Below are positions 1 through 33,682 of a stretch of DNA of 34,691 nt, piece after piece. How positions within the stretch are numbered: the first letter of the stretch is position 1; every line of letters starts with the position of its first letter. Origin of the DNA: a virus; IMG/VR virus record IMGVR_UViG_3300028048_000053, positions 1-34,691 of that record; one strand, given 5' to 3'. Below the pieces are notes generated by a model. It did not search any database. It was not told where the DNA came from and worked only from the letters and a program-made list of their open reading frames with translations. The position numbers and the translations under genes are program-made.

Positions 1-15
1 AACCACCCCCCTTTT

Positions 16-39
16 AAAAAAAAAAAAAAAAAAAAAAAA
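16..39. repeat. homopolymeric A24 tract immediately upstream of first early promoter
   Basis: seen directly: 24 consecutive A at 16-39. Confidence 0.9.
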
Positions 40-49
40 TAAAAACCCC

Positions 50-362: not shown

Positions 363-391
363 TTGACAATGCCCGGGCGATGTGCTACAAT
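363..391 (+). promoter_or_regulatory. class I promoter TTGACA-N17-TACAAT, CCCGGGCG in spacer
   Basis: -35 363-368, -10 386-391. Confidence 0.7.
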
Positions 392-401
392 ATAGACAGT
401 T

Positions 402-421
402 AAGGGAGCTGATAAACCCTT
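402..421 (+). promoter_or_regulatory. 5'-UTR hairpin family 1 (stem AAGGG/CCCTT, invariant loop AGCTGATAAA) upstream of SD
   Basis: same element at 1243-1260, 3380-3397, 4928-4947 with compensatory stem changes. Confidence 0.6.
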
Positions 422-444
422 GAAAACAGAGAAAGAGAGAGACC

Positions 445-570
445 ATGAGCATTGAGTATTACGAGATTATGAGCGACAATCTGAGCGACCTGCAGGACTG
501 GGCCGAATATGAGGCCGATATGGCTACCGACCCGTTCCAAGATGCGAACTGGGCCGACCGCATGGAGTGA
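445..570 (+). CDS. hypothetical small acidic protein (41 aa)
   Basis: ATG 445 after conserved leader; stop TGA 568-570; tandem terminators follow; shorter than ORF-track cutoff. Confidence 0.55.
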   Translation: MSIEYYEIMSDNLSDLQDWAEYEADMATDPFQDANWADRME

Positions 571-576
571 AGAGAG

Positions 577-645
577 AGAGGGGGGAAGCAATCCCCCCTC
601 TTTTACTGGCCCGCGCGTTGTCAGGTGCAACGCGCGGATTTTTGC
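577..645 (+). terminator. tandem terminator hairpins (GAGGGGGG..CCCCCCTC + CGCGCGTTG..CAACGCGCG) each followed by T-tract
   Basis: two GC-rich perfect stems followed by TTTT. Confidence 0.6.
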
Positions 646-720
646 TTGCAAGTGGGGTTTCGTGAATTTTTATACAAAAAAAATGAATAAAAATTTATGA
701 AAAAATTTTCACAAAACCCC

Positions 721-749
721 TTGACAAATCGCCCGGGCTATGGTATACT
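721..749 (+). promoter_or_regulatory. class I promoter TTGACA-N17-TGgTATACT, GCCCGGGC in spacer
   Basis: -35 721-726, -10 744-749. Confidence 0.7.
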
Positions 750-795
750 GTAGACAATGAAGGGGGCGAGACCCCCGAGAAAAGGAGTGCCAACT

Positions 796-1080
796 ATGAA
801 TATCCCTTATCATCTGACCATCCGCTCTAATGACCCCGACTGCCCGCAGACCATATGGTGGTTTGAGCAGGACGACTGCCACACCCTGGCCGAGGCCGAA
901 ATGGATGCCCTGGAAGAGGCCCTATATGTCCTCTGGGAGCTCGAACCTGTAGGCCGCGCTCCTGAGTGGATGCGTGAGTTGCGCAAGGTGGGCTGCACCA
1001 ACTTCCGCTACTGCCAGGAAGAGTTTGACGTGGTGCGCTGGGTGGGCGACCTGACCTACGAGGTCATGCTGAGCAGCTGA
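796..1080 (+). CDS. hypothetical protein (94 aa)
   Basis: AAAAGGAG SD then ATG 796, in frame with ORF 757..1080; terminator hairpins 1083-1146. Confidence 0.7.
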   Translation: MNIPYHLTIRSNDPDCPQTIWWFEQDDCHTLAEAEMDALEEALYVLWELEPVGRAPEWMRELRKVGCTNFRYCQEEFDVVRWVGDLTYEVMLSS

Positions 1081-1150
1081 GAGGAGGGGGGCTTCGGCCC
1101 CTCTTTTTTTGGCCCGCGCGCCACCGGGCCTGGCGCGCGGTTTTTGCATT

Positions 1151-1169
1151 ATTGTGCAGTTTGCACAAT
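1151..1169. repeat. perfect palindrome ATTGTGCAgtTTGCACAAT (operator-like) upstream of promoter; second copy at 6701-6719
   Basis: seen directly; both copies sit between a terminator and a TTGACTTTTTCC -35. Confidence 0.6.
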
Positions 1170-1201
1170 TTCAATCACAATTTTTTGTGCAATATGACAT
1201 A

Positions 1202-1230
1202 TTGACTTTTTCCCGTATCCGTGTTATACT
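1202..1230 (+). promoter_or_regulatory. class I promoter TTGACT-N17-TGtTATACT
   Basis: -35 1202-1207, -10 1225-1230. Confidence 0.65.
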
Positions 1231-1242
1231 GTAGACAGTTAA

Positions 1243-1260
1243 GGAGAGCTGATAAACTCC
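1243..1260 (+). promoter_or_regulatory. 5'-UTR hairpin family 1 (stem GGAG/CTCC, loop AGCTGATAAA)
   Basis: covaries with copy at 402-421. Confidence 0.6.
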
Positions 1261-1286
1261 GCAAACAGAGAAAGGGAGAACTTACC

Positions 1287-1490
1287 ATGTGGTATCAGAT
1301 TTGTATTTGTGGCAACGGATATGATGATTATGATGGAAGCGGTTGCGCTTTCTTTGAGAACCACGACAAAGAGACCGCATATAAGGCTTATGAGGTCGCA
1401 AAAGCCCTCTGCACCCTATATCCCGATACTTGGATTGAGTTTCGTGAGGACGGGAGGCTCATTGAGGAGTATAACACCTTTGCCGACTAA
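1287..1490 (+). CDS. hypothetical Cys-containing protein (67 aa)
   Basis: ATG 1287 after family-1 leader and GGGAGA SD; in frame with ORF 1221..1490. Confidence 0.7.
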   Translation: MWYQICICGNGYDDYDGSGCAFFENHDKETAYKAYEVAKALCTLYPDTWIEFREDGRLIEEYNTFAD

Positions 1491-1706
1491 ATCATTGACA
1501 TTTTAAAAGGAGGGGCTTCAGCCCCTCTTTTTTACTGACCCGCGCGTTGTCAGGTGCAACGCGCGGATTTCGCTTTAGCCAGGAGGAATAAGAATTTTTA
1601 TATAAAAAAATCACGTCTTTATGCGAGCTATTATATTCCTAATACTTGCTATTGGTAAAAATTTTTGTTATAATAAATATAGAAAAGCTGGAAAGTGGTG
1701 TTACTG

Positions 1707-2000
1707 ATGCGAGTGATAAAAAAGATAGATGATTTGGGCCGTGTGGCTATTCCAAAAGACATCAGAAAAGCAATGGGATTATTTAGTGGGGATGAAATCG
1801 AACTATTGTTCCAGGAGGAAGAAAAGCAGTTGATTATAAAGCCCTACGTATCAAACTATGCGAAACAGATTACAAAATTAAAAGAGGAAATTGCGGCCGC
1901 TCGGTCAGAGGCCGGTTTAACTGGTGTTGAGGATGTGCTAGACCTACTGGCGCAGGCCGAGGGAAAGCTGACTTCCATCGAATCAGATTTGCAAAAATAA
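1707..2000 (+). CDS. AbrB/SpoVT (swapped-hairpin) family transcriptional regulator-like protein (97 aa)
   Basis: N-terminus MRVIKKIDDLGRVAIPKDIRKAMGL matches the AbrB/MazE N-domain pattern; AT-rich TTGCTA-N17-TATAAT promoter upstream; paralog at 16794. Confidence 0.7.
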   Translation: MRVIKKIDDLGRVAIPKDIRKAMGLFSGDEIELLFQEEEKQLIIKPYVSNYAKQITKLKEEIAAARSEAGLTGVEDVLDLLAQAEGKLTSIESDLQK

Positions 2001-2052
2001 AAAATTTTTTGTATAATAATATTAGAAAAAATGAATAAAGGAAGTTTGTTCG

Positions 2053-2169
2053 ATGACCGTGGAATTAGTAAAAGCTCTTTTATTAATTGCTAAAGTTTGC
2101 ATGTCCTCTCCCAACTGTGAACAGTGCAAAATAAAAGACTTCTGTGGTAAGATGCCTTCTCAATGGTAA
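2053..2169 (+). CDS. possible small Cys-rich peptide (38 aa)
   Basis: AAGGAAG SD 8 nt before ATG 2053; 4 Cys; stop TAA 2167-2169; terminator 2238-2272 downstream; below ORF-track cutoff. Confidence 0.35.
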   Translation: MTVELVKALLLIAKVCMSSPNCEQCKIKDFCGKMPSQW

Positions 2170-2345
2170 GATTTGAGGGTGTTCGACACCGGCCGCGATG
2201 CGGTCGAATTTCACGGGAACAAACGTTCTGGAGTTTTTGTTTTTGAAGACCGGCCGCAGAAGCCGGTCTTTTTTTATCCCGAAACCCTTGACATTTATAT
2301 AAAAGTATGCTATACTATAGTCAAGCAACAAGGGGGCCGCAATTA

Positions 2346-2498
2346 ATGCATACTTATAGAATTTATTTCACTTTTGATTTTGAAAAAGTTACCCATAGCG
2401 TCGAGACTGGCAAGAACGCCCATGAAGCTATCGCCAAATTACAAGAGCGTTTTCCAAAACTTAAAAAAGTTTATTGTTACGAAGAAGAAAATGCTTGA
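2346..2498 (+). CDS. hypothetical protein (50 aa)
   Basis: class I promoter 2288-2316, SD AAGGGGGC, ATG 2346 in frame with ORF 2307..2498; next promoter overlaps stop. Confidence 0.6.
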   Translation: MHTYRIYFTFDFEKVTHSVETGKNAHEAIAKLQERFPKLKKVYCYEEENA

Positions 2499-2559
2499 CA
2501 ACAAGCACAAGATGTGCTATACTACAATCAGAAAGAAAAAAGAAAAGGAGATAATAAAA

Positions 2560-2733
2560 ATGATGACTGTTCGTGAAATGATGGAGTTTCTGTCCCGCTG
2601 TGATGGTGACGACTATGTTCTGCCCCGTTCCGGTTTTGACGAAGAAACTTTTGAGACTGAGCTGGCTGTTCAGGTGGTTGCCCGTGATGGCTCCGGCGTC
2701 ATAGATGGCGTCTACTGGACCGAAGAAGATTAA
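2560..2733 (+). CDS. hypothetical acidic protein (57 aa)
   Basis: AAAAGGAGA SD then ATG 2560; in frame with ORF 2374..2733. Confidence 0.65.
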   Translation: MMTVREMMEFLSRCDGDDYVLPRSGFDEETFETELAVQVVARDGSGVIDGVYWTEED

Positions 2734-2736
2734 AGA

Positions 2737-2766
2737 ATGGGGGAAGAAATTTCCCCATTTTTTTTT
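2737..2766 (+). terminator. intrinsic terminator ATGGGGGAAG..CTTCCCCAT + T9
   Basis: perfect hairpin plus T-tract. Confidence 0.7.
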
Positions 2767-2775
2767 AAAAAAAGC

Positions 2776-2804
2776 TTGACAAATAGCCCGGGGTATGCTA
2801 TAGT
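2776..2804 (+). promoter_or_regulatory. class I promoter TTGACA-N17-TGcTATAGT, GCCCGGGG in spacer
   Basis: -35 2776-2781; -10 2799-2804. Confidence 0.65.
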
Positions 2805-2838
2805 ATAATCAGAAAGCAAGAGAAAAGGAGATACGAAA

Positions 2839-3024
2839 ATGAGCGAGCTGAGAGAAAAACTGATTGACCGCATGATTCGGATTTACGGCTTTGAGAATAA
2901 AATCGTGATTGACTTCTGCCGATGCTGTGAGACTTTTCCGAATGATGAAGCACATGACAAAACCCTGCGGACGCTGGTAATGGTCCACGAAGAGTGTCCC
3001 GTAATTGAGGAGGAGGATGAGTAA
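2839..3024 (+). CDS. hypothetical Cys-containing protein (61 aa)
   Basis: ORF track; AAAAGGAGA SD; hairpin terminators 3005-3085. Confidence 0.7.
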   Translation: MSELREKLIDRMIRIYGFENKIVIDFCRCCETFPNDEAHDKTLRTLVMVHEECPVIEEEDE

Positions 3025-3212
3025 TCCTCCTCATTTTTTGCATAATTATGCGGCCGCGCGCCACCGGCCCTAGCGCGCGGTTTTTGCATAAATATTCACT
3101 TTTCAGCAATTTTTTGTATAAATATTCATTGTAACACTTTGTAACCATTTTCCCAAAAAACTGTAACTATTTTGTTATTGACTTCTGGCTTACTTTGTGC
3201 TATACTTTAATC

Positions 3213-3315
3213 AAGGTTGAGGGGCGAAAACAAGATAACAACAGGGACTTGTAACTGCCCGATAAAGAAAAGATAGAAAAGGACTTTTCCAGCTATCCCC
3301 GCCCCTCAAAAAACT
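3213..3315 (+). ncRNA. candidate sRNA: promoter (TTGACT 3178-3183, TATACT 3201-3206) to structured ~100-nt transcript with no ORF
   Basis: long-range pairing GAGGGGCG(3218)...CGCCCCTC(3298); no start codon or SD. Confidence 0.35.
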
Positions 3316-3379
3316 TGAAAAAAATGAAAAAAAGGCTTGACAAACTCAAAAAGGTATGCTATAATAAGAGCGTAATCAA

Positions 3380-3397
3380 GGAGAGCTGATAAACTCC
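3380..3397 (+). promoter_or_regulatory. 5'-UTR hairpin family 1 (GGAG/CTCC, loop AGCTGATAAA)
   Basis: identical to 1243-1260 element. Confidence 0.6.
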
Positions 3398-3421
3398 ACA
3401 AACAGAGAAAAGGAGAAAATT

Positions 3422-3631
3422 ATGAAGATGCGTGCTACTACTAAGGCGGCTATTCAGGCCCTTATCGACAACAAGGCTGAGGTCTACCGCTGGACTGATG
3501 CCGAGGGATGGAGCGTCATCAACACCCCGGCATATGGCGTGTCCATGAGCACTCTGCGCAAGTACGCCACCTATGACAAGCGGCCCTATGGTGAGGGCGA
3601 GATGCTGACCGTCACGGGGTGGAGGGAGTAA
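3422..3631 (+). CDS. hypothetical protein (69 aa), paralog of 4972-5181
   Basis: ORF track; about 70 percent identity to the 4972 product (MKMRATTKAAIQALIDNK.. versus MKMKITTKKAIQTLIDNK..). Confidence 0.75.
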   Translation: MKMRATTKAAIQALIDNKAEVYRWTDAEGWSVINTPAYGVSMSTLRKYATYDKRPYGEGEMLTVTGWRE

Positions 3632-3886
3632 TCTTTCCACCATATATAGAGGCCATTCCCACTAAGCGAGAAGCCGTGGCCAGGAGGAAATAACGAAAAG
3701 GGATAAATACTCCAAAATGTCAACTTCTCATAGGAGGGGGGCTCTTGCCCCTCTCCTTTTCTACTCACCCTCGCGCTTTCTGACGCCAGCGCGAGGAGTT
3801 TAGATTTATATATAGATTACACAATTTTTACCCTATTTTTTTGTGCATATTGTCTACTTGATTTTTTCCTGCATCTATGCTATACT

Positions 3887-3995
3887 TTAATCATCAAGGG
3901 GCGGTGACGCTGACCGGCGGGAAGCAGATACCAAGGTAGCTACAAAGGAAAACAGAAACACGGCTTGTGAAGACACACCGACAAAATTTTTTGGA
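3887..3995 (+). ncRNA. candidate sRNA cassette (promoter TTGATT 3858-3863 / TATACT 3881-3886, no ORF)
   Basis: promoter consensus then ~100 nt lacking an ORF, ending in a hairpin plus T6. Confidence 0.3.
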
Positions 3996-4047
3996 GAAAT
4001 TCAAAAAACCCCTTGACAAACCCATGAAAGTGTGCTATAATAAAGGC

Positions 4048-4373
4048 ACAAGGTCAAGAGGGGAACCGAACAGGACGAAGTAAGGCACCGCGGATGACCC
4101 GAAAAGCGACGAGAGGTTGATAAAAGCTTGATACCCTCTTGACTGTCCACTTAAATAGCACTTCAACTATCAGGCAGACGGAGGTGTCGGAAAGATGTTT
4201 ACGAGCGGATTTCTGTAGCAACTGAATAAGCTGTAGAAAAACGTAAATGTAGGAACGGAGGCAGCTTCTAATGTATTGGTCTGGATTTGTGTAGCTACAA
4301 TTAAATGATGTGTTTTCGATAGGCCGGGACGATGCTTGCGCCCCGGCCTATCGCCCGGGCAAAAAACTTTTTT
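4048..4373 (+). ncRNA. candidate ~300-nt non-coding transcript (promoter TTGACA 4013-4018 / TATAAT 4036-4041) ending in a 12-bp perfect hairpin terminator (4310-4347) + GCCCGGGC + T-tract
   Basis: no ORF with SD on + strand; the minus-strand ORF 4170..4694 spans promoters and terminators and is judged spurious. Confidence 0.35.
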
Positions 4374-4445
4374 CAAAATACTATTGACAAGCTCGGAATA
4401 ATCTGCTATACTGTATTCAGAAAGAAACGAAAGGGGAATTTCAAA

Positions 4446-4637
4446 ATGTACACACTGAGTATTTACACCTATGAAATCAGCGACTATAACCGCCTTGACC
4501 TGTATATCAGCGGTTGCGAAGCGGCCTATGCCGCTTTCCGTAAGGCTTGCGAGCTTGCCGACCTCACGGGCGCTTTCGTGAGCCTGTGGGATAACGACAC
4601 GGGCGAGGTCGTTGCGGACAATGGGGAGGATGAGTAA
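4446..4637 (+). CDS. hypothetical protein (63 aa)
   Basis: class I promoter 4384-4415; ATG 4446 in frame with ORF 4332..4637; terminators follow. Confidence 0.7.
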   Translation: MYTLSIYTYEISDYNRLDLYISGCEAAYAAFRKACELADLTGAFVSLWDNDTGEVVADNGEDE

Positions 4638-4680
4638 TCCTCCCCATTGTCTACTGGCCCGAGCGCCCACGGCCCAGGCG

Positions 4681-4733
4681 CTCGGTTTTTGCATAAATAT
4701 TCAGTTTTGGGTGAATTTTTGCATAAATATTCA
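4681..4733. repeat. GCATAAATATTCA direct repeats flanking a 12-bp inverted repeat (TTTTGGGTGAAT / ATTCACCCAAAA)
   Basis: GCATAAATATTCA-like copies also at ~3070, 3107, 5520, 5554, 5583. Confidence 0.6.
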
Positions 4734-4801
4734 CCCAAAAATTTTTCAACTTTTTTCACAAAACCTATTGACATTTCAGAAAAACCTGCTATAATAGGTA
4801 G

Positions 4802-4880
4802 TGTCAAGGGGAGAAGAAAACAACCTCTCACAGGCGCGTAACCTGTTGTAAGTAAAATAAAATCTCTCATAAAAATGTAA
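4802..4880 (+). ncRNA. candidate short transcript from promoter TTGACA 4768-4773 / TATAAT 4790-4795 with no ORF
   Basis: hairpin ACAGG-cgcgtaa-CCTGT; no SD or ATG. Confidence 0.25.
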
Positions 4881-4927
4881 AAAACCCCTTGACAATTCCC
4901 CGTAAGTGTGTTATACTTAAACCATCA

Positions 4928-4947
4928 AAGGGAGCTGATAAACCCTT
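4928..4947 (+). promoter_or_regulatory. 5'-UTR hairpin family 1 (AAGGG/CCCTT, loop AGCTGATAAA)
   Basis: identical to 402-421 element. Confidence 0.6.
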
Positions 4948-4971
4948 GAAAACAGAGAAAAGGAGAACGCT

Positions 4972-5181
4972 ATGAAAATGAAGATTACGACTAAAAAGGC
5001 TATCCAGACCCTCATTGACAACAAGACCCCCATTTTCCGCTGGACTGATGCGGACGGGTGGAGCGTCATTGATACCGCCGCATATGGCGTGTCCATGAAA
5101 ACTCTGCGCAAATATGCCACCTATACCAAAACCCCCTGCGAGGGCGGCGAGATGCTGACCGTCATCGGGTGGAAAGAGTAA
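4972..5181 (+). CDS. hypothetical protein (69 aa), paralog of 3422-3631
   Basis: ORF track; family-1 leader; AAAAGGAGA SD. Confidence 0.75.
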   Translation: MKMKITTKKAIQTLIDNKTPIFRWTDADGWSVIDTAAYGVSMKTLRKYATYTKTPCEGGEMLTVIGWKE

Positions 5182-5463: not shown

Positions 5464-6050
5464 AGCACTTTAACGATTTAAAGCGCTGAAGTTCAGCCGG
5501 GCGCCCGCGGTCCAAGCGCCCGGCTTTTGCATAAATATTCAGTTTTCAATGAATTTTTGCATAAATATACATACATTTTCTGCATAAATATTTTCACAAA
5601 ACCTCTTGACAGATTGCACGGGCTATGCTATAATACAATCAGAAAGCAAGAGAAAAGGAGGTAAAAAACATGAAATACTTTATTCACACCTATGACTGGA
5701 ATTTTGATACGATGGAACGGAAGCATGAAGTTAAAGAAATTAACCATCAAGAGCTTGCGGAACTTGTGCAATACCAAGAGGAAACCGCCTTTGACTACAA
5801 GTGGAATGAATTGAAACTTATCAAAATGACTGATACGGAAATGCACTTCGTGCTTAACAAGAAAACCAAATTAAATTATTAATCTTAAAAAAAGGTAAAA
5901 GAGGGGGATTGCTCCCCCTCTCTTTTTAAGGCAAACACTTTAACGATTTAAAGTGCTGAAGTTCAACCGGGCGCTTTCCCACGCAGCGCCCGGTTTTTCA
6001 ATTTAAATGGTTAAAGCGTAATTTTTGCCGCACTTTAACCATTTAAAGTG
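5464..6050. repeat. three copies of palindrome GCACTTTAA-N4-TTAAAGTGC (5464-5489, 5937-5955, 6031-6050)
   Basis: seen directly; each follows a gene terminator. Confidence 0.6.
5670..5882 (+). CDS. hypothetical protein (70 aa)
   Basis: class I promoter 5608-5640; AAAAGGAGG SD; ORF track. Confidence 0.7.
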   Translation: MKYFIHTYDWNFDTMERKHEVKEINHQELAELVQYQEETAFDYKWNELKLIKMTDTEMHFVLNKKTKLNY

Positions 6051-6719: not shown

Positions 6720-6816
6720 TTTTGCCCCGATTTTTTGTGTATATTGCAGGATTGACTTTTTCCCAGAAGTGTGCTATACTTTAAACAATCCAAGAGGAAA
6801 GGAAAGTCGAAAATTG

Positions 6817-7266
6817 ATGCAGACTATTTACTTTGACATGGACGGCACGCTTGCCGACCTCTATAGTGTCTTTAACTGGCTGGGCAAACTGCGCTCTGAG
6901 GATGCAACCCCCTATATGGACGCCAAGCCCTTAATCCGCATGGCTCTGCTTGCCCGCCTTTTGAATGGCCTGCAAAAGCAGGGGTATCAGATTGGGATTA
7001 TCTCCTGGCTCAGCAAAGAATCTTCACGGGCATATGAGGTAGAGGTCTCTATTGCCAAGGAAGAGTGGCTGAAAAAGCATCTGCCGAGCGTGACTTGGGA
7101 TAAGATGCATTTCATTCCATATGGAGTTCCCAAGGCCGAGGCCGCAAACATTCAGCCGTTCGATATTCTGTTCGATGATGAACAAGCCAATATCGAAGCA
7201 TGGGAGCGCGCAGGTGGATGGGGCTTTTCCCCCGATAAAATCTTTGAAACTCTGCGGGGAATGTGA
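6817..7266 (+). CDS. HAD-superfamily hydrolase, 5'(3')-deoxyribonucleotidase-like (149 aa)
   Basis: N-terminal motif FDMDGTLADL matches HAD motif I as in the NT5C family; ATG 6817 in frame with ORF 6769..7266. Confidence 0.6.
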   Translation: MQTIYFDMDGTLADLYSVFNWLGKLRSEDATPYMDAKPLIRMALLARLLNGLQKQGYQIGIISWLSKESSRAYEVEVSIAKEEWLKKHLPSVTWDKMHFIPYGVPKAEAANIQPFDILFDDEQANIEAWERAGGWGFSPDKIFETLRGM

Positions 7267-9326: not shown

Positions 9327-9695
9327 ATGACTACTTCTAAGATGACCTACAAGACCGCTATCGAGTACGCTATCCGCAACCTGCCTGCCGATGCCCCTGT
9401 CGAGGTGACGGACAAGCTGACCGCCCTTATCACTTCCCTGGAGAAGAAGAGCGGCGCCGAGCGCAAGCCCACCGCCACGCAGGTGGCGAACGAGGGCTAT
9501 AAGGCCGCCATCATGGAGTACCTTTCCGATGTGGGCGAGCCCAAGACCGTGGGCGACATTCTGAAAGAGGTTCCTGCGGTGGCTGGCTTCTCTACCCCCA
9601 AGGTGTCCGCTCTGATGAAACAGCTCACCGAGGGCGGCGCTGTCGAGCGCTTGACTGACAAGCGCCGCACCTACTTCAAGGCGATTGTCGCCTAA
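9327..9695 (+). CDS. winged-helix-like DNA-binding protein (122 aa), paralog of 13714-14100
   Basis: C-terminal ~75 aa nearly identical to the paralog, including at nucleotide level; ORF track. Confidence 0.7.
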   Translation: MTTSKMTYKTAIEYAIRNLPADAPVEVTDKLTALITSLEKKSGAERKPTATQVANEGYKAAIMEYLSDVGEPKTVGDILKEVPAVAGFSTPKVSALMKQLTEGGAVERLTDKRRTYFKAIVA

Positions 9696-13014: not shown

Positions 13015-13134
13015 GGCGTAAGGGGGGAACATTTGTTCCCCTATCTGCGCCCGGGCGGCCGCAAACTGCACAATTTTAATACTCTGTTTTTGTGCAAAAC
13101 ACCATCTTGCTTTTTTAAGATAGTGTGCTATAAT

Positions 13135-13600: not shown

Positions 13601-13713
13601 AACTCTTGACAAGCCGCTTTGAGTGTGCTATAATAATGGTGTCAATGAGGGAAGCCCCTCTTGAACATAAAAAAAATATGGGTAGCGACCTACCGCTAAA
13701 GGAGTTGTGTACT

Positions 13714-14100
13714 ATGACTAACACCAAGATGACCTACAGCAAGGCTATTGCCGCCTGTATCGACCTGCTGACCACTGGCGAGACTTCTGAGAATCCCACC
13801 GAAATCGTGGAGAAGCTGACCGCCCTCTCCGAGAGCCTTGCGAAGAAGTCTGGGGCTGAGCGCAAGCCGACTGCGACCCAGGTTGCCAACGAGGGCTATA
13901 AGGCGGAGATTCTCGCCTATCTGCGTGATGTGGCCGAGCCTAAGACTGTGGGCGACATTCTCAAGGAAGTCCCCGCCGTGGCTGGTTTCTCCACTCCCAA
14001 GGTATCTGCCCTCATGAAGCAGTTGGTTGACGAGGGTAACGGCCCCGTCGAGCGTCTGACCGACAAGCGGCGCACCTACTTCCGCATCAAGGCGGAGTAA
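13714..14100 (+). CDS. winged-helix-like DNA-binding protein (128 aa), paralog of 9327-9695
   Basis: family-2 leader; ATG 13714 in frame with ORF 13447..14100. Confidence 0.7.
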   Translation: MTNTKMTYSKAIAACIDLLTTGETSENPTEIVEKLTALSESLAKKSGAERKPTATQVANEGYKAEILAYLRDVAEPKTVGDILKEVPAVAGFSTPKVSALMKQLVDEGNGPVERLTDKRRTYFRIKAE

Positions 14101-15457: not shown

Positions 15458-15589
15458 CCCCCCTCTTTTTCTTCCCCCTGCGCCCGGGCGCAAAAATTTT
15501 TTTTCAAAACCCCCTTGACAACCCTCCAAGAGTGTGTTATAATAAAGGCACATTGAGGGTGGTGGCCTAACACCAAAGGAGAATTTGTT

Positions 15590-16195
15590 ATGAACAAGAG
15601 TGACTTTTTCGAGCGTGAAATCCAGTTCATTGAGGACATTGACCTCCAAGACTTTGTTCGCTTTTTCTTCAATGAAAGATGCGGCGACTGGTTTTGGAAG
15701 TCTGGGGCTTCCAGTTCTGGGAAATATCATCCCCAGTTCACCAAGGGCGAGGGTGGACTTGTGCGCCATACTAAAGCCGTTGTGTGGGTCTGTGAGGAAC
15801 TTCTGCGCATGAGTTCCTACGCCTACATGAAAGACATTTACAAGGACTACGCAAGGGTCGCCTGCCTGCTTCACGATACACGCAAGTATGGCGGCGGGGA
15901 TGAAGAGGATAAAAGTTATTATCCACGTCATGGTGAAGCCGCCGCAAATGATGTTGGTGTGGCGTGGCGAGAGTTTTTCCACTGTCATTCCTGCCCCGAA
16001 TTGCTTTTGATGGCTATTCACTCCCACATGGGACAGTGGACGGAAAACAGAGAGGACAGACCCTTTACCAACATTGACCGCCTGGTACATCTGTCGGACT
16101 ACATCGCAAGCCGTCCTTTCTGGGACATTCCCGACATTACCACCGAATACAACGAAGCCAATGCAAAGATGATTGAAGATTCTCTGCCTTTCTAA
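15590..16195 (+). CDS. HD-domain phosphohydrolase (201 aa)
   Basis: H..H...LLHDTRKYG...H motif arrangement typical of the HD superfamily; family-2 leader; ORF track. Confidence 0.6.
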   Translation: MNKSDFFEREIQFIEDIDLQDFVRFFFNERCGDWFWKSGASSSGKYHPQFTKGEGGLVRHTKAVVWVCEELLRMSSYAYMKDIYKDYARVACLLHDTRKYGGGDEEDKSYYPRHGEAAANDVGVAWREFFHCHSCPELLLMAIHSHMGQWTENREDRPFTNIDRLVHLSDYIASRPFWDIPDITTEYNEANAKMIEDSLPF

Positions 16196-16793: not shown

Positions 16794-17075
16794 ATGAGAG
16801 CAACAGGTATTGTAAGACGCATTGATGACTTCGGCAGAGTTGTCATTCCGAGGGAAATTCGCAAAACTCTCAACATTCGCGAGGGCGACCCCCTCGAATT
16901 CTTCACCGACCCCGACGAGAGGGCTGTGTGCTTCAAGCCCTATCTGCCCTACTCCGAGCCGTGGCGTATGCTCGAAGATGCCGCAGAGACCATGCGTGAC
17001 AGCGAGGACTTTCACGAGTTCGCCGCCGATGTTTACGCCCTTGCGCGTAAGATTCGGAAATCTGCGCAGGGCTGA
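16794..17075 (+). CDS. AbrB/SpoVT/MazE-like regulator (93 aa), paralog of 1707-2000
   Basis: MRATGIVRRIDDFGRVVIPREIRKTLNIREGDPLEF matches the swapped-hairpin pattern. Confidence 0.7.
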   Translation: MRATGIVRRIDDFGRVVIPREIRKTLNIREGDPLEFFTDPDERAVCFKPYLPYSEPWRMLEDAAETMRDSEDFHEFAADVYALARKIRKSAQG

Positions 17076-17216
17076 TAAATACCCCCGCCTTGGCGGGGGA
17101 AATCGCCCGGGCGCAAAAGTTTTTTCAAAAAGGGCGTTGACAAAGGTATAATCTTGTGCTATAATATCAATGTAAACAAAAGGGTTGCGACCTAACGCAA
17201 GAAAGGAATTGATACT

Positions 17217-17510: not shown

Positions 17511-17643
17511 GGGTAAGGGGGCTTAATGTCCCCTGCTGCCCGGGCGCTAAAAAAATCAAAAAAAGGTATTGACAAGCGGCGCAATCTGTGCTATACTATA
17601 CACAGTTAAGGGGTGGCGGCCAAACGCTAAAGGAGATAAAAAA

Positions 17644-19710: not shown

Positions 19711-20085
19711 ATGGTAACTAAGAATGATATTATTTCTCGCCTCCAGAAGGGTGAGGATATTGATGCTATCGCCGCAGAGTTCACTAATCTGCTCAATGAC
19801 GCGTCGAAAGAGTACACAGCCAAGCACAAGAAGAATGCGGCTGCCGAGGAGCTGGCCGTGGCGTTCAACGACTTCCTTGAGTCCTACTATCCCAACCTTG
19901 TGAAGAACGCACCTATCACTCCGGATGAGCTGATTGAGCTCTTTGATGCGCTCTCCGAGCTAGTGGAGACGCTTGGTGACCTTACGTCTATTCTGGCTCC
20001 GGGTAAGCCGGAGACTAAGTCCAAGAGCAAGGAAGATATGGATAAGGAGACAATTGAGGCGTTTCTGCGGTCGCTGCAGCTGTGA
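19711..20085 (+). CDS. hypothetical protein (124 aa); first gene driven by a class II (AT-rich) promoter
   Basis: TGATATAATATATATAGAAAATAAAGAAAGGAAT leader; ATG 19711 in frame with ORF 19618..20085; terminator 20106-20138. Confidence 0.7.
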   Translation: MVTKNDIISRLQKGEDIDAIAAEFTNLLNDASKEYTAKHKKNAAAEELAVAFNDFLESYYPNLVKNAPITPDELIELFDALSELVETLGDLTSILAPGKPETKSKSKEDMDKETIEAFLRSLQL

Positions 20086-20105
20086 GAAGAAAATATCTAA
20101 GTTAT

Positions 20106-20138
20106 AGAGGGACAGAGCTAATGCTCTGTCTCTTTTTG
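20106..20138 (+). terminator. intrinsic terminator AGAGGGACAGAGC-taat-GCTCTGTCTCT + T5
   Basis: perfect stem then T-tract. Confidence 0.7.
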
Positions 20139-20197
20139 TTTGGCTGCGCGAACCGGAGGTAAAAAAGGGCCTCTGGGGTCGGCTCTGCTCACGCAAC

Positions 20198-20350
20198 GAA
20201 TTTTAGTATTTTTATATAGAATTTTTAGTATTTTTATATAGAATTTTTAGCATTTTTATTAACGAATTTTAGCATTTCTATTTAAAATGTTTAGCATTTT
20301 TATATAGAGTTTTAGTATTCTTTATATAGTATTTTAATAGTTCTATACAA
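20198..20350. repeat. about 7 tandem copies of a 22-bp AT-rich unit GAATTTTTAGTATTTTTATATA (iteron-like)
   Basis: seen directly. Confidence 0.7.
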
Positions 20351-20384
20351 CGAACTTCAACCTTTCTTAAATAACTCCATATGC

Positions 20385-20450
20385 CATTTCATTTCATTTT
20401 TCTATTATCTTCTTCGACCCTTCCCCACATTTTCATTTCATTTTTCTATT
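20385..20450. repeat. 2 copies of CATTT(T)CATTTCATTTTTCTATT
   Basis: seen directly. Confidence 0.6.
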
Positions 20451-21029
20451 CCCCGAAGATTAGTATTTATACTCCACCGTTCTTCCGGCATAATTATATT
20501 TTGGCTTAAAAACCCTAATCAGCCCTAATTCCATACTCTATACATCACGCTTTGTTATCTTACTATTACTCTTTATCTTGGAAACATCAATCAGTTTTTT
20601 AAATTCAATTTTATTTTCTTTATTTATCTAATTATAAAAAATTAATTCTTTACTACATGTTTCTATACCCCTTTTATGTTCTTCCCATCTTTCCTCAAAA
20701 TCTCTCATTGTCATACCTACATATACTAATTCATCATTTTCATAAATACCATAGACTCCATAAGATATAGTCTTTTCCTATTTAATATGATATTTTTTCT
20801 CATAAATCTTTACTTCTTGCTATAAAGCATAATAAAAATTATCTATTTCTTTCTATGCTATCGGAATTAAATGTTTTAAAATTATCTAAATATAATGATT
20901 TAAATCTCCTTTACTCTTTTTCGTTTGAGTTTGCTTAAAAAAATAACTAACAATATTCTAAAAAGAATCTAAATCTATAAACTCCCAGTATTTACCACAA
21001 GACAATATATAACCTGGCAGATTACTTCT

Positions 21030-21227
21030 CTATTCTTTAGTTAAAAAACAAACATAAGAATCATGACTACAACTATCTAATTTATAATTACTATCTAATT
21101 TTGGCATCTGCTTAATTATATATTGGTATACAATATACATATTTTTTCGATTCAAACTTTTATGCTCACATTTCATACATTTTTCAAATTCTTCTTGTGA
21201 AACCAACTTTATAACCTCCTCATACAT
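21030..21227 (-). CDS. possible small Cys/His protein (65 aa)
   Basis: C-terminal part of minus ORF 21030..21548; upstream part of that ORF is the low-complexity repeat array. Confidence 0.3.
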   Translation of the reverse strand: MYEEVIKLVSQEEFEKCMKCEHKSLNRKNMYIVYQYIIKQMPKLDSNYKLDSCSHDSYVCFLTKE

Positions 21228-21239
21228 TACCGAGCATCC

Positions 21240-21510
21240 TAAAAATACAAAACTTGTTTTGTATTTTTTTGTACAAAAACTTGTTTTTTGTACAAAAAGT
21301 TGTAAAAATACAACATTTTTGTTGTATTGTAAGACTAAAGATAGCTTATACAAAAAATACAAAAATACAAAAATTCTTGTATCGTAGAGTCTAAAAACTA
21401 CAATTTTCGTACAAAAAACATAAGCATTTATACAAAAATACATAATAGATAAATACAATAAAAATACAATCGTACAATTTTCATACAAAAATTCGTACAA
21501 AAAATCTATA
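21240..21510. repeat. array of GTACAAAAA / TACAAAAATAC direct repeats interleaved with palindromes
   Basis: palindromes TACAAAAC-ttg-TTTTGTA, GTACAAAAA-cttg-TTTTTTGTAC, AATACAACA-ttttt-GTTGTATT read directly. Confidence 0.65.
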
Positions 21511-21511
21511 A

Positions 21512-21886
21512 TCAAAATATAGCATTGGGGTCCTTGCGTTGTACCCATCCTTTTTTATGCTGTATAGTATTCAACTTTACTCCAAAATAATCGGCTATCT
21601 CTTGCGCGCTCATATTATTTCTAGCCATTTTGTATACTTCGGCATCGGTAACTTTGAGACGAACTTTGCCTCCGTTGCGCTTTTCTTCATACTTAGCAAT
21701 ACTGACATCTATACGCCCCTTCAATAAATTTACATAAGAGTTTATACTGGGGTCATCCGTATATTTCTATTCTAAACGACAGCCATATCTGATTAAATCA
21801 GCAATGATTTTGTCCTAACTTTCCACTGGCAACTAATCAATAGCTTCTAACCAATCACTGTGTACAATAAAAGTATTATCAGCCAT
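21512..21886 (-). CDS. HTH protein (124 codons; possible ArpU/RinA-like sigma-region-4-type regulator) with three in-frame TAG codons
   Basis: ATG 21886-21884 preceded by AAGGGGGA SD; in-frame TAG at 21833-35, 21815-17, 21767-69 (plus coordinates); no TAA/TGA for 124 codons in AT-rich DNA; C-terminal ORF 21512..21724 alone has no start or SD. Confidence 0.55.
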
Positions 21887-21890
21887 TCTA

Positions 21891-22070
21891 TTAGTCCCCC
21901 TTGGCGCCAAAAATTAAGTCTAATTTTTTTTCTAATTCTGGCGTATCTTCAAAAACCCAACACCAATACTATGGCTAAAATGGATTCTTTATAGTTTCAA
22001 CGGGATATACTCCCATTTTCACCAACTTTAGCATTATTTTGCGAGAATAAATAATTCGATTCTTTAGCAT
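21891..22070 (-). CDS. small protein (59 codons) with two in-frame TAG codons
   Basis: ATAGGAGTG SD 9 nt before ATG 22070; TAG at plus 21975-77 and 21969-71; stop TAA 21893-21891 abuts the SD of the next gene. Confidence 0.45.
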
Positions 22071-33215: not shown

Positions 33216-33682
33216 TTGCCTGACCTTACATTCTTGATGAAAAAGAAAAATGAATAGTAAGCAAAAAGGCAATATTACTGAATTAGAAACAATGTTAGCG
33301 TTTTTAAAACATGGTTTTAATGTTTTAACTCCTTATGGAGATTGTGAAAGATATGATTTTGTAGTAGACGCTAACAGAAAGTTTTATCGAATTCAGAGTA
33401 AAACAGCAAGCACAGAAGACGATGGAGCTTCGTTTAAGTTTTCTTGTAGGAGCTCAAATCGTCAAGATGGTAGAATAGTCCATCACCAATATACAAAAGA
33501 TGAAATTGACTATTTCGTAACTTCTTTTGAAGGAAAATGTTATTTAATTCCAGTTGAAGAATGTGGTTGTGATAAACGACTTCGTCTTTTTCCTACTAAA
33601 AATGGACAAACAAGAGGAATAAGCTGGGCAAAAGATTATGAAATGGAGGAAGTAATCAAGAATTGGTAAGCTGATGTGCAAG
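33216..33682 (+). mobile_element. 467-bp insertion in the tRNA-Asp anticodon loop carrying an endonuclease-like ORF; group-I-intron-like boundaries (5' exon ends in T, insertion ends in G)
   Basis: boundaries inferred from tRNA cloverleaf; only ~47 nt of the insertion lie outside the ORF, so the intron class is unresolved. Confidence 0.5.
33250..33669 (+). CDS. putative homing endonuclease of the PD-(D/E)XK / Hjc-like fold (139 aa) encoded inside the tRNA-Asp insertion
   Basis: pattern E11..LK.GF.V..P.GD..RYDFVVD....FYRIQSK resembles small restriction-endonuclease-fold nucleases; ORF track. Confidence 0.45.
   Translation: MNSKQKGNITELETMLAFLKHGFNVLTPYGDCERYDFVVDANRKFYRIQSKTASTEDDGASFKFSCRSSNRQDGRIVHHQYTKDEIDYFVTSFEGKCYLIPVEECGCDKRLRLFPTKNGQTRGISWAKDYEMEEVIKNW

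Follow-up and report, generated by a model that had tools for sequence, protein, structure and literature searches.

A predicted compact pseudoknot in the 5' untranslated regions of early mRNAs of uncultivated phages

A stretch of 34,691 nucleotides (nt) of the IMG/VR virus record IMGVR_UViG_3300028048_000053 (positions 1 to 34,691 of the record), referred to as the window and belonging to an uncultivated metagenomic contig of ~172 kb, contains four gene leaders with a common short element. As far as sequence comparison can show it, covariation in two interleaved helices identifies this element as a compact H-type RNA pseudoknot of about 28-32 nt, which is located in the 5' untranslated regions (UTRs) of phage early mRNAs. 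Judged in the same way, the motif is a distinct and previously uncatalogued RNA family outside Rfam, of a general kind that is already known. Regarding its function, the element is tentatively read as a partner-stabilised translational operator for early mRNAs, which we consider quite possible without calling it probable.

Pseudoknot fold and covariation

A preliminary description of the window had reported a hairpin with an invariant 10-nt loop in four leaders, and these leaders could be confirmed. The loop AGCTGATAAA occurs exactly four times, always on the + strand (Table 1), compared to ~0.07 occurrences expected for an exact 10-mer in 2 x 34.7 kb (own arithmetic). Downstream of all four copies lies AAACAGAG, which was found 6 times in the window compared to 1.2 expected occurrences, a number reached in none of 100 shuffles. 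With a covariance model the four copies scored 56-60 bits and the next match in the window 15.7 bits, which indicates that the window comprises exactly four copies. Copies 1 and 4 share the stem AAGGG/CCCTT, copies 2 and 3 the stem GGAG/CTCC. In this helix (P1), the second and the fourth pair from the loop outward are swapped between G-C and A-U, in agreement with the two compensatory changes described before for AGGG/CCCT and GGAG/CTCC. A near-consensus sigma-A promoter precedes each copy, with 9-15 nt between its -10 box and the start of the copy, and 13-14 nt separate the end of P1 from the Shine-Dalgarno sequence (SD) downstream, within the 12-16 nt given earlier. In an alignment of the four leaders with 60 nt of flank, the promoter spacer, the transcript start, the spacer between SD and ATG and the coding sequence differ, and conservation is limited to the promoter hexamers, the motif and the SD. 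Due to these differences, a recent duplication of whole leaders with identical flanks, which the preliminary description had named as the competing explanation, is excluded.

The covariance-model search of related genomes proposed there revealed further copies and further covariation. A strict pattern, GAGCTGATAAAC-N5-6-AAACAGAG, yielded 10 loci in IMG/VR and 94 in metagenomes, while a slightly looser one added a handful of contigs binned into metagenome-assembled genomes (MAGs) of Bacillota; all true matches of these patterns showed the same order of promoter, motif, SD and ATG. The covariance model, built from 33 copies, also recovered lower-scoring copies in related loci. Altogether, pattern scans and model gave 93 distinct copies in phage-like contigs and 128 motif-bearing loci in total. 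The loop variants AGCUGACAAA, AGCUGAAAAA and AGCUGGUAAA were found by leaving loop positions 6-7 free and by a scan for tail plus SD. Relaxed scans with 14-15 specified bases gave chance matches and added one true copy, L252, among the matches listed. Tail plus SD (AAACAGAGAAAAGGAG) was rejected as a marker of the motif; since most of its occurrences are free of the knot, it is not specific. Among 50,697 GenBank phages no match was found by megablast of 12 kb or by tblastn of a 560-amino-acid (aa) protein.

In P1, 55 distinct stems were determined in the 93 copies, and the three closing pairs are always paired. Stems of relatives can be wholly different from those of the window (GGGG/CCCC, AGAAG/CUUCU, UAAAG/CUUUA, AAUUG/CAAUU, ACAG/CUGU). 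When the closing pair was left free in the pattern, C-G was found in place of G-C (GAC...GUC, AGUC...GACU), resulting in 78 copies with G-C, 13 with C-G and 2 with G-U.

The second helix (P2) is formed by loop bases 3-5 (CUG), which are complementary to the CAG of the downstream AAACAGAG. Lower-scoring copies carry changes on both sides, as for example an AGAUG... loop with a CAUAG tail or an AGCCG loop with a CGGAG tail. A descriptor search, in which AG-NN-G...(AAA/AA), a P1 of at least 3 base pairs (bp) and AA-C-NN-AG were fixed while the two middle P2 positions were left free, gave 104 distinct candidates. Both free positions were complementary in 91 of these, compared to 1 of the 8 candidates obtained from reversed sequences. 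The non-complementary candidates are mostly noise from coding sequences, in a number close to the control prediction, and two of them carry CAGAG two bases further on. After correction of the register, P2 is paired in 92 of the 93 true copies, including 23 of the 24 non-canonical ones. The combinations of loop and tail were CUG/CAG in 69 copies, AUG/CAU in 9, GUG/CAC in 7, CCG/CGG, GCG/CGC and GAG/CUC in 2 each and UUG/CAA in 1, while the sole true mismatch (L538:3999) combines AUG with CAG. These variants are spread over several P1 stems and several contigs.

For a count of pairs, 94 copies were aligned with MAFFT, with P1 and P2 written as a pseudoknot. The amount of paired cells was 90.2% compared to 70.3% in shuffles, none of 500 reaching the observed value, and it fell to only 25-54% when the partners were slid by 1-3 columns. 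None of the three pairs closing P1 was ever broken, and all of them showed double-sided changes. In P2, pair 10-30 comprised CG (69), AU (9), GC (8) and UA (1), and pair 11-29 comprised UA (88), CG (4) and AU (2) with no broken pair.

These data bear directly on the simple hairpin of the preliminary description, in which the invariant 10-nt loop would be read by a protein, leaving AAACAGAG as a spacer or an extension of the SD. The identity of loop and tail in all four window copies is in line with such an operator. In relatives, however, loop positions 3 and 4 change together with the tail positions, a covariation that already contradicts it; a loop form of 7 nt exists, and tail plus SD are widespread without the hairpin. 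Since the three bases after CAGAG vary (AAA, UAA, AUU, AAU, AAC), CAGAG is not an extension of the SD. The loop is thus invariant inside the window only: in relatives its positions 3-5 covary with the tail and positions 6-7 vary. With loop positions 3-5 paired to the downstream CAG, the supposed hairpin becomes a pseudoknot, and the tail is no spacer but supplies the 3' strand of P2. A simple hairpin operator is therefore considered very improbable.

A role at the level of DNA, as a duplex operator, a promoter-proximal pause or a sigma-binding element, or the origin of the copies as a relic of recent leader duplication, would fit the location of the motif at about +3 to +35 of strong promoters, and in some copies TGATAAACT resembles an extended -10 element. 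This resemblance fails in CCC and GUC stems, the flanks are not conserved, and the phages differ widely in GC content (0.2 to 0.49 in the motif segments). Moreover, the arms covary under preservation of their complementarity and the interleaved second pairing covaries as well, which contradicts a duplex site and points to a folded single strand, as the preliminary description had assumed. The probability left for this group of explanations is close to negligible.

Regarding the anatomy of the knot, P1 comprises 3-7 bp of free sequence with 87% purine in its 5' strand. Loop L1 is AG, or GG or AA in two variants, and the 3 bp of P2 connect loop bases 3-5 with C-N-N past the A-rich loop L3, the G:C at the junction being invariable. 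The sequence of L2 is (R N)AAA, reduced to AA in the 7-nt-loop form AGNNGAA (AGCUGAA, AGCCGAA, AGGCGAA). L3 ends with AAA in the aligned copies, AG follows P2, and 83 of 93 copies have 9-10 nt between the end of the loop and the 3' strand of P2. At the helical junction, about twelve unpaired bases hardly vary, even between phages that are very different. The model-found exceptions GGCUGAUAAG and AAGUGAUAAA and the tails CAGGG and CAUGG indicate that the positions fixed by the descriptor are nearly, not absolutely, invariant.

The distance to the SD is narrow, with 3-4 nt between the end of the motif and the start of the SD in 62 of 93 copies and an ATG 11-16 nt past the motif in 80 (about 14 nt). 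Between the -10 box and P1 lie anything from 0 to 54 nt, most often 10 nt, and ~10% of the copies show no recognisable promoter within 60 nt. This combination of tight spacing to the SD and loose spacing to the 5' end indicates that the motif is locked to the ribosome-binding site.

The genes downstream encode 82 distinct proteins, which form 56 unrelated clusters and are mostly small and acidic or membrane proteins without family assignment. This confirms the earlier view that the element goes with the leader and not with the gene. In related phages, the gene that most often follows the pseudoknot directly (9 of 82 proteins) encodes homologues of winged-helix-like proteins of ~125 aa, which were found in 38 loci. 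In the AT-rich relatives L525 and L569 the majority of early promoters carry the motif, as do many in L527 and L550. Several P2 versions (CUG/CAG, AUG/CAU, GUG/CAC) occur within the single genomes of these four relatives, which could result from neutral drift or could reflect separately addressable classes of leaders. In a collection of genomes from 185,579 species, the canonical motif was found in only ~six contigs, several of which (L393, L420, L423) show phage-like arrays of early genes with multiple promoter-linked copies. The named bacterial contigs with the motif are Bacillota (Firmicutes) MAGs only, and these large uncultivated phages appear to infect gut and rumen Firmicutes. Two loci, one of them on a contig of the Bacillota MAG UBA8580, carry tandem copies on one leader, 84 nt apart and with the stems AAAAG/CUUUU and GUC/GAC, where no obvious start codon follows the first copy. 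In the literature, full-text matches to the loop sequence were primers and vectors only, and topical searches gave no description of the motif.

A partner-stabilised operator and its alternatives

The intrinsic stability of the element is low. The P1 hairpin has a mean folding free energy (dG) of -2.0 kcal/mol (+2.9 to -7.1), with many copies at zero or above, and P1 is part of the minimum free energy (MFE) fold in 45 of 90 leaders. The z-scores for folding as a plain hairpin were not significant. The MFE fold of window copies 2 and 3 pairs CUCC with the SD. A switch between SD and anti-SD pairing was rejected: the duplex of the P1 3' strand with its own SD averages -1.7 kcal/mol compared to -1.85 kcal/mol with permuted partners, and the pyrimidine-rich strand is equally complementary to its own SD and to those of other copies.

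Since P1 is marginal and P2 comprises only 3 bp, while pairing is kept up by compensatory changes and the junction bases are conserved, we infer that the RNA folds around a partner. The regulon-like, gene-independent and apparently phage-restricted distribution favours a macromolecule over a metabolite as this partner. According to this tentative model, the fold would be held by a macromolecular partner that reads the junction of P1 and P2, most likely an RNA-binding protein made by the phage, with a host protein or the 30S platform as alternatives. The folded knot, 3-4 nt 5' of the SD, would modulate 30S binding and could thereby act as a regulon-wide operator. Our committed guess would be a steric repression that shuts off translation of early genes once the partner accumulates. 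As no expression platform with an alternative pairing is present, any effect on initiation must be steric. A compact preQ1-I pseudoknot is reported to attenuate translation even up to 10 nt from the SD (PMC10018353), and a steric effect of the present knot is plausible for this reason. With its narrow spacing to SD and ATG in most of the 93 copies, the element lies in cis near the ribosome-binding site of the downstream gene, as an operator would. That a protein may act in trans on it, in the manner of RegA or coat-protein operators, was proposed in the preliminary description and is a reasonable assumption, whereas the processing site also proposed there found no support.

Several observations weigh against an operator of this kind. 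The RNA-binding protein that the preliminary description suggested to look for among the early genes did not emerge: no known RNA-binding domain was detected with Pfam and PHROG in the 55-60 window proteins, and the most common families of the 128 motif-bearing loci, which are fragments of ~100-190 kb genomes, include no RNA binder. Most widespread in these loci are winged-helix-like, DEDD-exonuclease-like and NT5C-like nucleotidase families. No conserved alternative pairing between SD and anti-SD exists, which would leave only a steric mode of control. The knot could be stabilised without any partner by tertiary A-minor or triplex contacts, to which the nearest-neighbour energies are blind. 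The P2 variants may go back to only 5-6 independent double substitutions. Finally, many copies were found by patterns that fix the canonical loop and tail, and the near-invariance of these parts is therefore partly a matter of construction.

Self-folding through A-minor or triplex contacts is the basis of a constitutive structural cassette, which would act as a 5' block against decay that depends on the 5' end (RNase J1, RNase Y) and/or as an insulator-enhancer by which the strong SD stays unpaired in front of any gene. 5' stem-loops and SD-like 'stabilisers' protect Bacillus mRNAs, including an early RNA of phage SP82, and compact luteoviral pseudoknots of 3+5 bp are stabilised by triplexes of their A-rich loops. 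The gene-independence of the motif, the usual start of P1 a few nt from the predicted 5' end (modal distance of 10 nt from the -10 box) and the purine-rich nature of the remaining leader and of the P1 5' strand are in accordance with such a role. A poor mechanical block, however, is to be expected from the many P1 stems that comprise 3 bp or only A/U and have a hairpin dG at or above zero. In addition, the spacing is tight to the SD and loose to the 5' end, ~10% of the copies have no nearby promoter, and the occurrence in ~six contigs of the 185,579-species collection is narrower than expected for a stabiliser or enhancer of general use. A constitutive cassette is considered possible, though rather unlikely.

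Instead of a partner-dependent operator, the early transcripts could also display a decoy or anti-defence RNA that mimics a type III antitoxin (ToxI/CptI-like) or titrates a host nuclease. Type III antitoxins are pseudoknots and phage mimics of them are known; a small A-rich pseudoknot in many copies on highly expressed early RNAs, strongly conserved in sequence across diverse phages, would suit this purpose. However, type III antitoxin RNAs (ToxI/CptI/TenpI) are tandem repeats beside the gene of an endoribonuclease toxin, whereas the copies of the motif are dispersed, one in each 5' UTR at a fixed distance to the SD. No toxin-like gene or domain was detected in the window (the PADLOC library was not searched), nor was there any similarity to an Rfam family. 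A decoy is thus very unlikely, and even taken together the minor options hold little probability.

A small-molecule riboswitch with a fold like preQ1-I would replace the macromolecular partner by a ligand at the P1/P2 junction, which gates early-gene translation sterically beside the SD. Size and architecture are those of class I preQ1 aptamers (H-type knot, A-rich L3, short P2, ~10-nt loop; PMC11625349). The marginal stability without a partner and the nearly invariant unpaired purines at the junction agree with a ligand-bound RNA, and steric regulation does not depend on sequestration of the SD (PMC10018353). On the other hand, the 56 unrelated clusters represent no coherent gene association, many copies per genome are unusual for riboswitches, and an expression platform is absent. 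The specificity C and the L1 U of preQ1-I are both replaced by A, no Rfam riboswitch was matched even at E<=10, and the window contains no genes for queuosine or 7-deazaguanine. We regard a riboswitch as improbable; the same low expectation applies to its specific form, a new class on the preQ1-I fold with adenines in place of the specificity C and the L1 U and with a different ligand. Such a ligand could be, e.g., a metabolite specific to infection, or a base or nucleotide whose face resembles that of uracil or thymine.

Control of translation by small pseudoknots beside ribosome-binding sites is already known as a mode. What is new here is a family outside Rfam with covariation in two helices and a dozen near-invariant junction bases, which is used as a portable cassette on unrelated early genes. 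If the preferred reading as an operator is correct, translation of early genes in these phages would be under a global regulator that is still undiscovered. An aptamer would add a new class of ligand to the smallest riboswitch scaffold known so far; with a new riboswitch the phage would gate most of its early genes at once, the first case in which a riboswitch globally controls the timing of a class of viral genes. A constitutive element would provide a compact, context-independent 5'-UTR part for expression in Gram-positive bacteria. Under any reading, early genes in phage contigs from metagenomes can be recognised by the sequence of the motif.

Early region of the window

Between positions 50 and 18203 the + strand of the window carries 36 near-consensus sigma-70/sigma-A promoters (TTGACA, 17 nt, TGnTATAAT/TATACT), and almost all small genes are individually equipped with a promoter and a terminator. 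The layout suggests a phage early region, of the host-takeover type according to the promoter density. Four of the 36 promoters are followed by the motif (Table 1). The open reading frames (ORFs) of 69 aa behind copies 3 and 4 are paralogous, as noted in the preliminary description, and no relatives of them were found in IMG/VR; the 41-aa ORF behind copy 1 has no match in Pfam or PHROG. The match of 15.7 bits (13073-13115, - strand) lies 3' of a minus-strand promoter-like site and comprises a GCAA...UUGC hairpin followed by ACAAAAACAGAG. It was rejected as a fifth copy: its tail is present and the loop absent, and it was treated as a chance match, being otherwise a possible degenerate relative.

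Other leaders of the region show features of their own. Several promoter spacers share CCCGGGC. A second family of leader hairpins abuts the SD at 15560-15575, 17185-17200, 17614-17629 and about 13665-13690 (UGGUG-GCCUAA-CACCA, UUGCG-ACCUAA-CGCAA, UGGCG-GCCAAA-CGCUA, UAGCG-ACCUAC-CGCUA). Its stems covary and its loop is RCCWAA, whose CCU could pair with the AGG of the SD and form another SD-linked knot. This second family is also used by the window's two paralogous winged-helix-like proteins of ~125 aa (MT.KMTY...; 9327-9695 and 13714-14100). A third type of leader, common to several early genes, is unstructured, starts with AAUCAGAAAG and is purine-rich up to the SD. Past the intrinsic terminators of several early genes lies a second, conserved inverted repeat rich in GC, CCCGCGCG-N12-CGCGCGG followed by TTTTTGC, with a variable centre of 12 nt, which could be a tandem terminator or a site for a protein or an RNase.

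Consensus promoters also precede stretches of structured-looking sequence without a plausible ORF (3178-3336, 3850-3990, 4013-4370, 4768-4880), as for example 3213-3310, which is closed by GAGGGGCG...CGCCCCUC. They may represent small RNAs of the phage; no match was obtained when 3150-4900 was scanned permissively against Rfam. At gathering thresholds the sole Rfam matches in the window were five tRNA genes (13240, 33098, 34257, 34414, 34570). Among the proteins of the window are two DNA-binding proteins of the AbrB/MazE type (1707-2000, 16794-17075), an NT5C-like deoxypyrimidine 5'-nucleotidase (6814-7266), an HD-domain protein (15590-16195) and a PD-(D/E)XK nuclease (33250-33669). A poly(A) run of ~24 nt is located at the start of the window (1-45), near the contig end, and an AT-rich island at 20000-22000 shows a GC content of 0.29 and a reversed GC skew.

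Table 1. Coordinates of the four pseudoknot copies with their promoters and gene starts, and of further leader and terminator features (promoters from a promoter scan; scores from the covariance model).
Feature	Position	Strand	Details
Copy 1, promoter	363-391	+	-35 TTGACA 363-368; 17-nt spacer; extended -10 TGTGCTACAAT, hexamer 386-391
Copy 1, pseudoknot	402-431	+	P1 5' AAGGG 402-406 (extendable to 400); P1 3' CCCUU 417-421; 56.0 bits
Copy 1, loop AGCUGAUAAA	407-416	+	L1 AG 407-408; P2 5' CUG 409-411; L2 AUAAA 412-416
Copy 1, tail	422-431	+	L3 GAAAA 422-426; P2 3' CAG 427-429; conserved AG 430-431
Copy 1, gene start	435-570	+	Purine-rich SD-like GAGAGAGA 435-442; ATG 445; 41-aa ORF to 570
Copy 2, promoter	1202-1230	+	-35 TTGACT 1202-1207; -10 TATACT 1225-1230
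Copy 2, pseudoknot	1243-1270	+	P1 5' GGAG 1243-1246; P1 3' CUCC 1257-1260; 58.4 bits
Copy 2, loop and tail	1247-1270	+	Loop 1247-1256; P2 5' CUG 1249-1251; L3 GCAAA 1261-1265; P2 3' CAG 1266-1268; AG 1269-1270
Copy 2, gene start	1274-1490	+	SD GGGAG 1274-1278; ATG 1287; 67-aa ORF to 1490
Copy 3, promoter	3337-3365	+	-35 TTGACA 3337-3342; -10 TATAAT 3360-3365
Copy 3, pseudoknot	3380-3407	+	P1 5' GGAG 3380-3383; P1 3' CUCC 3394-3397; 58.4 bits
Copy 3, loop and tail	3384-3407	+	Loop 3384-3393; P2 5' CUG 3386-3388; L3 ACAAA 3398-3402; P2 3' CAG 3403-3405; AG 3406-3407
Copy 3, gene start	3412-3631	+	SD GGAG 3412-3415; ATG 3422; 69-aa ORF; 72% identity to ORF at 4972
Copy 4, promoter	4889-4917	+	-35 TTGACA 4889-4894; -10 TATACT 4912-4917
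Copy 4, pseudoknot	4928-4957	+	P1 5' AAGGG 4928-4932; P1 3' CCCUU 4943-4947; 60.4 bits
Copy 4, loop and tail	4933-4957	+	Loop 4933-4942; P2 5' CUG 4935-4937; L3 GAAAA 4948-4952; P2 3' CAG 4953-4955; AG 4956-4957
Copy 4, gene start	4962-5181	+	SD GGAG 4962-4965; ATG 4972; 69-aa ORF
Third leader type (window)	84-127, 2530-2562, 2805-2840, 4418-4447, 5640-5672		
GC-rich inverted repeat (window)	610-637, 1113-1140, 1539-1566, 3054-3080, 4658-4685		
Tandem motif copies (relatives)	L393:936-1061; L550:7333-7500		L393: contig of Bacillota MAG UBA8580

Comparison with known RNA systems

The closest likeness in form is to the preQ1-I aptamers (RF00522, types I-III), which are likewise H-type pseudoknots of ~30-34 nt in the 5' UTR beside the SD (PMC11625349). 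Both RNAs comprise a short P1 with a purine-rich 5' strand, a 2-nt L1, a P2 of 3-4 bp formed from a hairpin loop of ~10 nt and the 3' tail, and an A-rich L3 that could sit in the minor groove of P1, and both are marginally stable without a partner. The covariation of P1 and P2 and an L3 ending with AAA thus correspond to the preQ1-I architecture. The motif differs in that its SD lies outside P2. The cytosine that determines specificity in preQ1-I is located just 5' of the P1 3' strand, as UC in type I and as AC in types II and III (PMC11625349), whereas all aligned copies of the motif show AA at this point, one variant recovered by the model shows AG, and C never occurs; scans with the 3' half of the loop left free gave no true copy with C at this position. 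In L1, the U(U) of preQ1-I is replaced by AG, with GG or AA in two variants. No match to RF00522 was obtained at the gathering score in the window or at E<=10 on short stretches holding copies. The downstream genes, mostly small and without assigned function, differ from the preQ1-I context, and Que, FolE and DpdA domains were not found in the window. On sequence grounds, membership in preQ1-I fails at every point of comparison at this level.

Permissive Rfam scans of four stretches gave sub-threshold noise and weak resemblances to the DUF805 and Clostridium-PBP RNAs only. The DUF805 RNA (RF03081, clan CL00115) has the consensus GUGG-AGaCCAGAaA-CCAC-UuaAAAAAC, which comprises a 4-bp stem, a 10-nt loop AG...AaA and an A-rich run to a C. 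The match fails with 20.0 bits compared to a gathering score of 51.1 and concerns one copy only, with P1 GUGG/CCAU; the other copies have no match, and the second hairpin of the DUF805 RNA is absent from the motif. The consensus of the Clostridium-PBP RNA (RF03091) shows a promoter, a hairpin, AAaACAGAC and the SD, and the motif scores 16.5 compared to a gathering score of 94.4.

Among phage repressors, T4 RegA binds unstructured, AU-rich sites that overlap the start codon, and the coat-protein operators of RNA phages are simple hairpins containing the start codon. The likeness consists in a single trans factor that could shut many early mRNAs, and in covarying stems with unpaired bases to be read; the motif differs as a pseudoknot that lies wholly 5' of the SD, and a RegA-like protein was not found in the window. 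The frameshift knots of luteoviruses (e.g. BWYV) have nearly the same geometry, with an S1 of ~5 bp, a 2-nt L1, a 3-bp S2 and an A-rich 3' loop with minor-groove triples. They are located inside the coding sequence past a slippery site and act on elongating ribosomes, whereas the motif lies upstream of the start codon, has a junction loop (L2) of 2-5 nt and is of bacterial-viral origin.

For protein-bound 5'-UTR pseudoknot operators, the phage T4 gene 32 pseudoknot (autoregulation by gp32), E. coli rpsO with S15 and the alpha operon with S4 are the established examples. As in these systems, where recognition by a protein controls 30S binding, the present pseudoknot is found near the ribosome-binding site, and the T4 case is also a phage leader. 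However, the known operators are single-copy, autoregulatory and restricted to one gene each, they are larger, and no sequence resemblance exists. Neither the T4 gene 32, S15 and S4 operators nor the luteoviral knots are a multi-copy portable leader cassette, as the motif described here is.

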